64,000 nt of DNA from Eledone cirrhosa. Taxonomy: Eukaryota. The position numbers and the translations under genes are program-made. Under the pieces are notes generated by a model. The model did no database searches and had not been told where the DNA came from. It saw nothing but the letters and a program-made list of their open reading frames with translations. The stretch's first letter is position 1. Every line of letters starts with the position of its first letter. Location: the NCBI GenBank assembly GCA_964016885.1, contig OZ024748.1, positions 38,006,001 to 38,070,000 on the forward strand. The letters run 5' to 3'. Of the stretch, positions 22,112 through 22,605 are shown in pieces.

Positions 22112-22605
22112 ATGAATAAAATCAGTGATCTTCCAGCCGTCATTGGTATTTCTTAGCATTAAATATCATATACCTCTGGCTGGTAAGAGCAATAACTAAA
22201 AAGGTTATTGGGACACGTAGAATAGGGTGAAGCGAGCGAGACATGTAAACAAACAGAGATAGTAATGCAACGGAAAGAGAGGAAGAGAGGAAAGAAGACC
22301 GTGATATCTGTGAATTTAAGTTCGATCAAATCGTGGACGAGGAGAGACACAGATACGTCCAGACCATGTGAAATGTGAGCGAGAAAAGGATTTCACACAG
22401 GTCAGACGGGAGGAAGTGAGAGAGGGGGAGTAGCAGAGAGTGAGTGAGTGAGTGAAAGTGTGAGGAATAGGCCAGCTGAGAGAGAATGACTGGCAGAAAT
22501 ACCAATGTCGGCTGGAAGATCCCTGATGATGGACGTTCTGTCTTCTCGGTCTCATTTTATTCATATGTATCCTATTTGCAACAACGCAGCACGCCATTTT
22601 TCATA
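22112..22605 (-). mobile_element. Non-coding element, diverged relative of the 619-bp family, with inverted terminal segment (22497-22605)
   Basis: Colinear similarity to 46930-47550, including the ribozyme-like region and the purine-rich interior; flanked by (TA)n. Confidence 0.7.

Follow-up and report, generated by a model that had tools for sequence, protein, structure and literature searches.

The 22-kb locus of the window (the whole 64-kb stretch of Eledone cirrhosa DNA that was analysed) is a single insertion, whose two halves lie on opposite strands and both end outward in (TA)n (Table 1). Read 5' to 3', the RNA motif of this repeat places a cleavage block (block S, GGUAU-H-stem I strand) before a GAAA block (block G) and a CUGAUGA block (block C). 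This order is that of type SGC, the non-circular hammerhead permutation of Eckert et al. 2023 (PMC10085705). An earlier sequence-only reading had quoted the minus strand from 22214 to 22121, and the quotation matches exactly; its linker lengths of 3, 9 and 6 nt are indeed the same in the 22-kb motif and in a second motif at 47.6 kb. By analogy with PMC10085705, cleavage in the 22-kb motif is predicted 3' of A22169. The deletion noticed after CUGAU is real: 28 nt were lost between AT microhomologies, and the final GA of CUGAUGA is absent from the minus-strand copy. The inverted plus-strand segment is real too, with GAAA starting at 22496, one base left of the 22497 given for it, and this segment lacks block S. 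That reading completed stem II by combining the two halves. The halves are truncated, and being on opposite strands they have no joint fold, so the combination fails and the 22-kb copy is dead whatever the family does. The reading also overlooked one helix, UCGCA/UGCGA (Pc), which is mutated in the 22-kb copy.

Table 1. Features of the 22-kb and 47.6-kb copies in the window.
Feature	Position	Strand	Remarks
22-kb element, main body	22121..22497	-	377 nt of a ~523-nt unit; subfamily A; 5'-truncated; 87% identity to natural tandem copy L018 (blastn)
SGC-order hammerhead motif, 22-kb copy	22121..22214	-	3' end deleted past CUGAU; predicted inactive
Closing helix Pa, 5' strand GUCC	22211..22214	-	GGAC partner deleted on minus strand
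Hairpin Pb, CAAUAAC/GUUAUUG	22190..22210	-	two-sided change between subfamilies at two pairs
Helix Pc, 5' strand	22184..22188	-	UCUUA here, UCGCA in the family: broken
Helix Pd, 5' strand CCAGCC	22178..22183	-	
Block S	22162..22174	-	stem III strand GGUAU 22174-22170, A 22169, stem I strand UGAUAUU 22168-22162
Helix Pc, 3' strand	22154..22158	-	UGCUA here, UGCGA in the family
Block G, A(11.1)-GAAA-UACC	22145..22153	-	GAAA at 22152-22149
Pd 3' strand and block C	22121..22138	-	GGCUGG 22138-22133, stem I strand AAGAUCA 22132-22126, truncated core CUGAU 22125-22121
Inverted 3' segment, 22-kb element	22495..22618	+	GAAA 22496-22499, GGCUGG 22510-22515, CUGAUGA 22523-22529, U-GGAC 22530-22534
(TA)n run, 3' end of minus-strand half	22011..22113		
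(TA)n run, 3' end of plus-strand half	22608..22632		
Subfamily-B element	46921..47752	-	1.34 tandem units, 619-nt period, both ends (TA)n-rich
Intact subfamily-B SGC motif	47606..47706	-	cleavage predicted 3' of A47660
Second subfamily-B motif, mutated	46987..47087	-	core UUGAUGA, GUAC

Scanning the window with an SGC descriptor gave one match, the 47.6-kb motif, with stems of 6 and 8 bp; 30 shuffled windows gave no match of at least 5/7 bp. At gathering score nothing in the window matched Rfam, and even with E up to 10 the segment 47500-47800 matched none of its hammerhead families. Other features accompany the two copies. A canonical type I hammerhead, which Rfam misses at gathering score, lies at 45301-45390 (+), with stems I UCUC/GAGA, II GUUCC/GGAAC round a long insert and III CCACC/GUGGU. 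Type I descriptor matches at 6370, 6574 and 8666 were set aside as chance by appearance. A reverse transcriptase (RT) frame at 9675-11261 matches RVT_1, and Helitron-like Rep/helicase frames, whose translations were judged by eye, occupy 33093-36982 and 41384-44162. A Penelope-like element of another kind occupies 12040-16600; it has large inverted repeats and a GIY-YIG-like frame that is C-terminal, and its 3' end is found again at 21878-21995. This 3' end carries GUCGAAAC and a hairpin without CUGAnGA, a related copy (L174) has CUGAUGA there, and the structure may be what is left of a permuted hammerhead outside the Naiad clade.

To place the two copies we searched the 3.0-Gb E. cirrhosa assembly. 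A pattern for the shared core gave 11,368 exact matches as against none for the reversed control pattern, and a subfamily-A pattern gave 159. First-look DNA searches returned 1,329 candidates for the 22-kb motif and 1,576 for the 47.6-kb motif; all 41 matches listed for the latter were 100% identical across 116 nt, which points to recent spread. The units are arranged in tandem with periods mostly of 520-760 bp (520-800 bp overall), copies span 1 to 9 units, and the longest array noted has 9 units of 721-806 bp each. No long complex ORF occurs in the repeat units, making the element non-coding. Inverted pairs have their 3' ends outward in 22/22 cases (overlapping loci counted separately), and for 91 of 124 motif copies an (AT)n run lies at most 130 nt downstream, usually at a C|ATAT site, a few of the runs being internal. 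At one locus (L127:1181-3331) a 129-bp internal segment of the unit has expanded to a ~15-copy tandem array. We also considered whether 5' ends fall at the cleavage site. The 37 nt preceding GAAA hold 12 breaks, 3 of them no more than 3 nt from the cleavage site; TATAT microhomology accounts for these, and the breaks are therefore not used as evidence of cleavage.

The core words are retained family-wide, in agreement with the sequence-only reading: GAAA in 29/31 and CUGAUGA in 26/31 copies of subfamily A, and in 22/22 and 20/22 copies of subfamily B. The A15.1-U16.1 pair at the UH site is U-A in 83/85 copies, with H being A or C, and the linker from stem I to the stem II strand is UAA in 84/85. 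An upstream strand adds Pa (GUCC/GGAC after the core), the hairpin Pb, Pc (UCGCA/UGCGA before N-GAAA) and Pd (CCARCC/GGYUGG beside stem I), so that Pa, Pb and Pc flank the stem II position with pairing on either side. The four paired changes listed earlier for the 22-kb copy are present and subfamily-wide, as judged by CCAGCC (28/31), GGCUGG (22/31), the stem III U-A pair (28/31) and AAGAUCA (30/31). The A.G mismatch reported for stem I exists in the 22-kb copy and is not the state of the subfamily, which has UGAUAUU in 4/31 and UGAUCUU in 26/31 copies.

The covariation of these paired changes, for which a statistical test had been proposed, was measured in an alignment of 26 natural copies from 7 subfamilies, chosen from 68 distinct full-length motifs; Pa was omitted, subfamily B being offset there by one base. 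Paired cells amounted to 94.8%, and 11 of 32 pairs showed a two-sided change. Among 500 shuffles none matched the observed percentage paired or the score and one matched the number of pairs with two-sided change, while slid-partner controls paired at 26-49%. A measure of further pair types was not above shuffles (18 vs 20.6). Stem I was paired in 97.8% of cells with two-sided change at 4 pairs, stem III in 99.2% with 1, Pd in 100% with 2, and Pc in 87.7% with none within the E. cirrhosa repeat family. At the level of subfamilies, the 13 variable pairs comprise 91 cells, 80 of which remain paired; label shuffles had a mean of 68.8 and 0/20,000 reached as high. The core differs across the 7 subfamilies in 0/11 columns, as against 9/21 unpaired columns. 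Identity of A with B, C, D and F is 0.78-0.87 in the motif and 0.62-0.68 in the remainder of the unit, and for A or F with the other subfamilies 0.75-0.87 and 0.55-0.68; between the close subfamilies B, C and D the motif is no better conserved than the remainder (0.82-0.86 vs 0.82-0.89). Conservation is inflated by the collection of copies through similarity or core patterns, and the rows are related. Nested folding gave weak z-scores of -1.3 to -2.0 under a model without pseudoknots. In alignment A1 an alternative register exists, in which columns 23-28 pair with 58-63 (GUUGC of the hairpin 3' strand with the GCGAY that precedes GAAA); it competes with Pb and Pc, fits several of the subfamily changes and is a possible folding switch. 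The earlier proposal that the fold is under selection in at least two subfamilies is borne out by two-sided changes across seven, and by recurrence of the layout with unrelated stems in other repeats and in Naiads.

The base of stem II behaves differently between subfamilies. The U and A that the sequence-only reading saw there are present in the 22-kb copy, but do not stand as covariation: among 31 copies of subfamily A the two bases are C.A in 23, A.A in 5, G.A in 1 and U.A in 2, and both U.A cells are copies deleted after the core. Of the 115 genome copies in which GAAA is preceded by A and the core followed by C or U, 10 of the first 100 listed have U, a minority that fits C-to-T decay at CpG. 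Elsewhere the pair does covary, being G-C in B, A-U in C, D and E and G.U in F; a purine-pyrimidine pair is found in six subfamilies and not in A (C.A/A.A). Subfamily A probably represents a branch that is slower or decaying, though not necessarily a dead one: the axolotl hammerhead HHR_Amex2 has U.U mismatched at the foot of helix II and yet reaches 22% cleavage in 1 h (PMC7229834), and most Naiad motifs pair both bases with the upstream strand. These natural variants (G-C, A-U, G.U, C.A and C.C) form a ready structure-function series.

Insertion traits reported for Penelope-like elements and Naiads, namely (TA)n targets, partial tandems and an inverted 5'-truncated copy, are present in the repeat. 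Craig et al. 2021 (PMC8557442) report (TA)n targets and such inversions for Naiads and state that these elements 'lack canonical HHR'; the passages used here deny them canonical hammerheads, mark 10 cases as HHR_core and 8 as HHR_half_core, and describe no permuted form. We read Naiad consensi by eye in passages of their File S5, which is not a census of all 54. The SGC motif with Pa-Pd lies at the 3' ends of three Acropora consensi (Amil, Aacu, Anas) and of Naiad-2_Movir, Naiad_Plae, Naiad_Obim and Naiad_Ovul, and in full at that of another consensus, probably Naiad_EuTe; Naiad_Esco has a weaker SGC motif at its 3' end. The hosts include coral, jellyfish, acanthocephalan and octopus. Four nematode consensi have the order CSG, and in the bivalve consensi of these passages (e.g. 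CGi, Olur, Tgra) the motif is absent from the last 600 characters. The SGC motif at Naiad 3' ends likely explains part of the reported absence of hammerheads.

A Naiad RT profile found 80 metagenomic loci, 69 of them with at least 150 nt downstream. On the sense strand 11/69 carried an SGC match and 2/69 a CSG match, as against 0/69 and 1/69 on the antisense strand; the type I and III descriptors gave zero matches in the 69 loci, and 56/69 had no match. The 11 SGC matches form about 4 sequence groups, with 40-55% identity to each other and to the E. cirrhosa repeat. In 10/10 of the metagenomic motifs tested the base before GAAA starts a helix of 5-6 bp with the upstream strand, its length being modestly above shuffles (mean 5.4 vs 4.4), and in 8/10 the base of stem II is not directly paired, the base before GAAA pairing upstream instead. 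At L268/L269 a CSG-order hammerhead with stems of 9 and 7 bp follows a Naiad-like RT match by 977 nt. Type CSG was known to Eckert et al. only from metagenomic DNA, according to the parts of PMC10085705 used here, and its association with Naiad-like RTs may explain this restriction.

Within E. cirrhosa, a different short pattern with 626 genomic matches vs 62 for its control led to older repeat families that keep the SGC layout with unrelated stem sequences, as judged by eye on degenerate copies. They comprise family X (L096, L112, L113), family Y (L093, L108, L109) and also L184, L185 and L186; X and Y are ~500-700 bp long with no linked ORF seen. A further family found by the pattern (Z; L120, L177-L179) was rejected as a hammerhead, being a hairpin without block S.

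Together, these data make the following account quite probable: a short non-coding tandem repeat, likely derived from the 3' tail of Naiad Penelope-like retroelements, carries in its intact members a non-circular S-G-C hammerhead core predicted to self-cleave, and the insertion at 22 kb is a dead copy of this repeat, altered by an inversion and a deletion. With somewhat less assurance, though still on the probable side, we propose that non-circular permutations of the hammerhead, of the order SGC and, in nematodes and part of the metagenomic elements, CSG, serve as a standard 3' ribozyme of Naiads across animal phyla, missed by genome searches limited to types I and III; that their non-autonomous offspring form a new and very abundant class of animal retrozymes; and that a multi-helix junction with the upstream strand replaces stem II.

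We looked for the element that might mobilise the repeat. The repeat itself has no ORF with an N-terminal GIY-YIG and a C-terminal RT, and is at most a non-autonomous Naiad derivative. Naiad-like matches in the E. cirrhosa genome are broken relics, as judged from the best candidates scored, and among the best-scoring candidates, decayed relics only, no tail shared with an autonomous Naiad was seen. The motif occurs in none of the 3' flanks of 21 Naiad relics (750 nt each), no genomic match was obtained with patterns built on the octopus Naiad motif or on the RT PMG motif, and a homologue search with a relic fragment gave none; one match in a viral collection was spurious. Penelope-like ORFs beside copies (e.g. 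L029) were rejected as partners: (TA)n separates them from the element and they look like insertion sites. An intact, young, Neptune-like family of Penelope-like elements is present (L213-L215, L217, L218), with frames of up to 784 aa and a C-terminal endonuclease-like end; it has no sequence match to the repeat unit and no hammerhead descriptor match in the 900 nt downstream. Subfamily B is nevertheless young. A Naiad that is unassembled or was missed, or another Penelope-like clade, may act in trans.

On the proposed mechanism, read-through transcripts would be cut after GGUAUA (GGUAUH) into unit-length RNAs, which may be circularised by analogy with animal retrozymes (PMC7229834). A Penelope-like RT/endonuclease would nick (TA)n and use CAUAU sites, which lie 10-75 nt past the core, for priming, and copying round a circle or along a multimer would yield 1 to 9 units. 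A linear cut monomer would give only ~60-130 nt, from cut site to priming site, so that longer copies need a circular or uncut template.

Alternatively, the fold may have been selected as a binding or priming signal for a Penelope-like RT or as a stabiliser of the RNA, the hammerhead core being a relic that no longer cuts. The closeness of the motif to the 3' insertion ends (10-75 nt) fits this account, as do the frequent lack of the stem II base pair and the spread of elements such as subfamily A with C.A. We nevertheless hold it to be unlikely, because all 11 core columns relevant to catalysis are invariant across the 7 subfamilies and recur in unrelated Naiad motifs, and because the axolotl hammerhead described above cleaves with a U.U at the same position. 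Still less probable is a core assembled from blocks of different tandem units or molecules, like the dimeric minimal hammerheads of Penelope, rather than from one pseudoknotted monomer. Such an assembly would suit the tandem organisation and the better cleavage of axolotl retrozyme hammerheads as dimers (PMC7229834); against it, stems I and III have 5-8 bp and close within about 50 nt, Naiad 3' ends with a single motif share the layout, the classic order would take blocks from three successive units, and natural SGC motifs cleave as single constructs (PMC10085705). That the paired changes are neutral, with few master copies, CpG decay and shared descent mimicking covariation, is hardly credible: the two-sided changes in the hairpin, stems I and III and Pd are nearly all transitions, the hairpin change from CG/CG to UA/UA falls on CpGs, the seven subfamilies are few and related and the stem II U-A is itself a decay product, yet covariation extends to non-CpG pairs (columns 3-6 of stem I, column 4 of Pd), and the same arrangement of helices returns in sequences of only 40-55% identity, a recurrence across families that largely refutes this account.

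If the self-cleaving reading is correct, the only known non-circular RNA permutation would move from unassigned environmental sequences to animal chromosomes, at >10,000 copies, and would gain a biological context. The published view that Naiads spread without hammerheads would need revision, as would the idea that hammerheads merely parasitise Penelope-like elements, and genome ribozyme surveys would turn out to miss a whole topological class. What appears new, on sequence grounds, is a known ribozyme permutation, in variant form, in the new setting of an animal genome; the 22-kb copy is broken and activity is predicted. Searches of the open full-text literature turned up no paper describing a non-circular permutation of the hammerhead in animal genomes or Naiads.

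The motif resembles type SGC (HRIMA-1 and variants; Eckert, Friedrich, Kammer and Weinberg 2023, PMC10085705) in its S-G-C order, its CUGAnGA/GAAA/UH core, the 3-nt link between the stem I and stem II strands and the additional helix that links stems I and II at their far sides. Type SGC hammerheads cleave at 0.007-0.19 per min and, in the passages of that paper used here, were found in metatranscriptomes and in no genome of a known organism. Unlike those sequences, the E. cirrhosa motif is genomic, animal and present in thousands of copies, and, compared with the description in the text of PMC10085705, it draws its distal stem II partner and bridging strand from upstream; these reach the core by way of a closing helix and hairpin, a junction taking the place of a plain stem II. 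With non-LTR retrozymes (Cervera and de la Pena 2020, PMC7229834) the repeat shares tandem non-coding units with a hammerhead each. These retrozymes are defined by type I hammerheads and, in the parts of the sources used here, were searched with type I/III descriptors (PMC7229834; bioRxiv 10.64898/2026.07.22.740005, Li et al.), whereas the E. cirrhosa repeat has the order SGC and no type I hammerhead by this definition; its units are also longer (520-800 bp), (TA)n-targeted and with Penelope-type inversions. It differs from Naiads in having no ORF, and a sequence link to a Naiad of its own genome was not found. With Naiads (PMC8557442) it nevertheless shares the (TA)n targets, partial tandems and inverted 5'-truncated copy, and its permuted motif is also that found near the 3' end in several of the published consensi, part of them labelled there just HHR_core or HHR_half_core.
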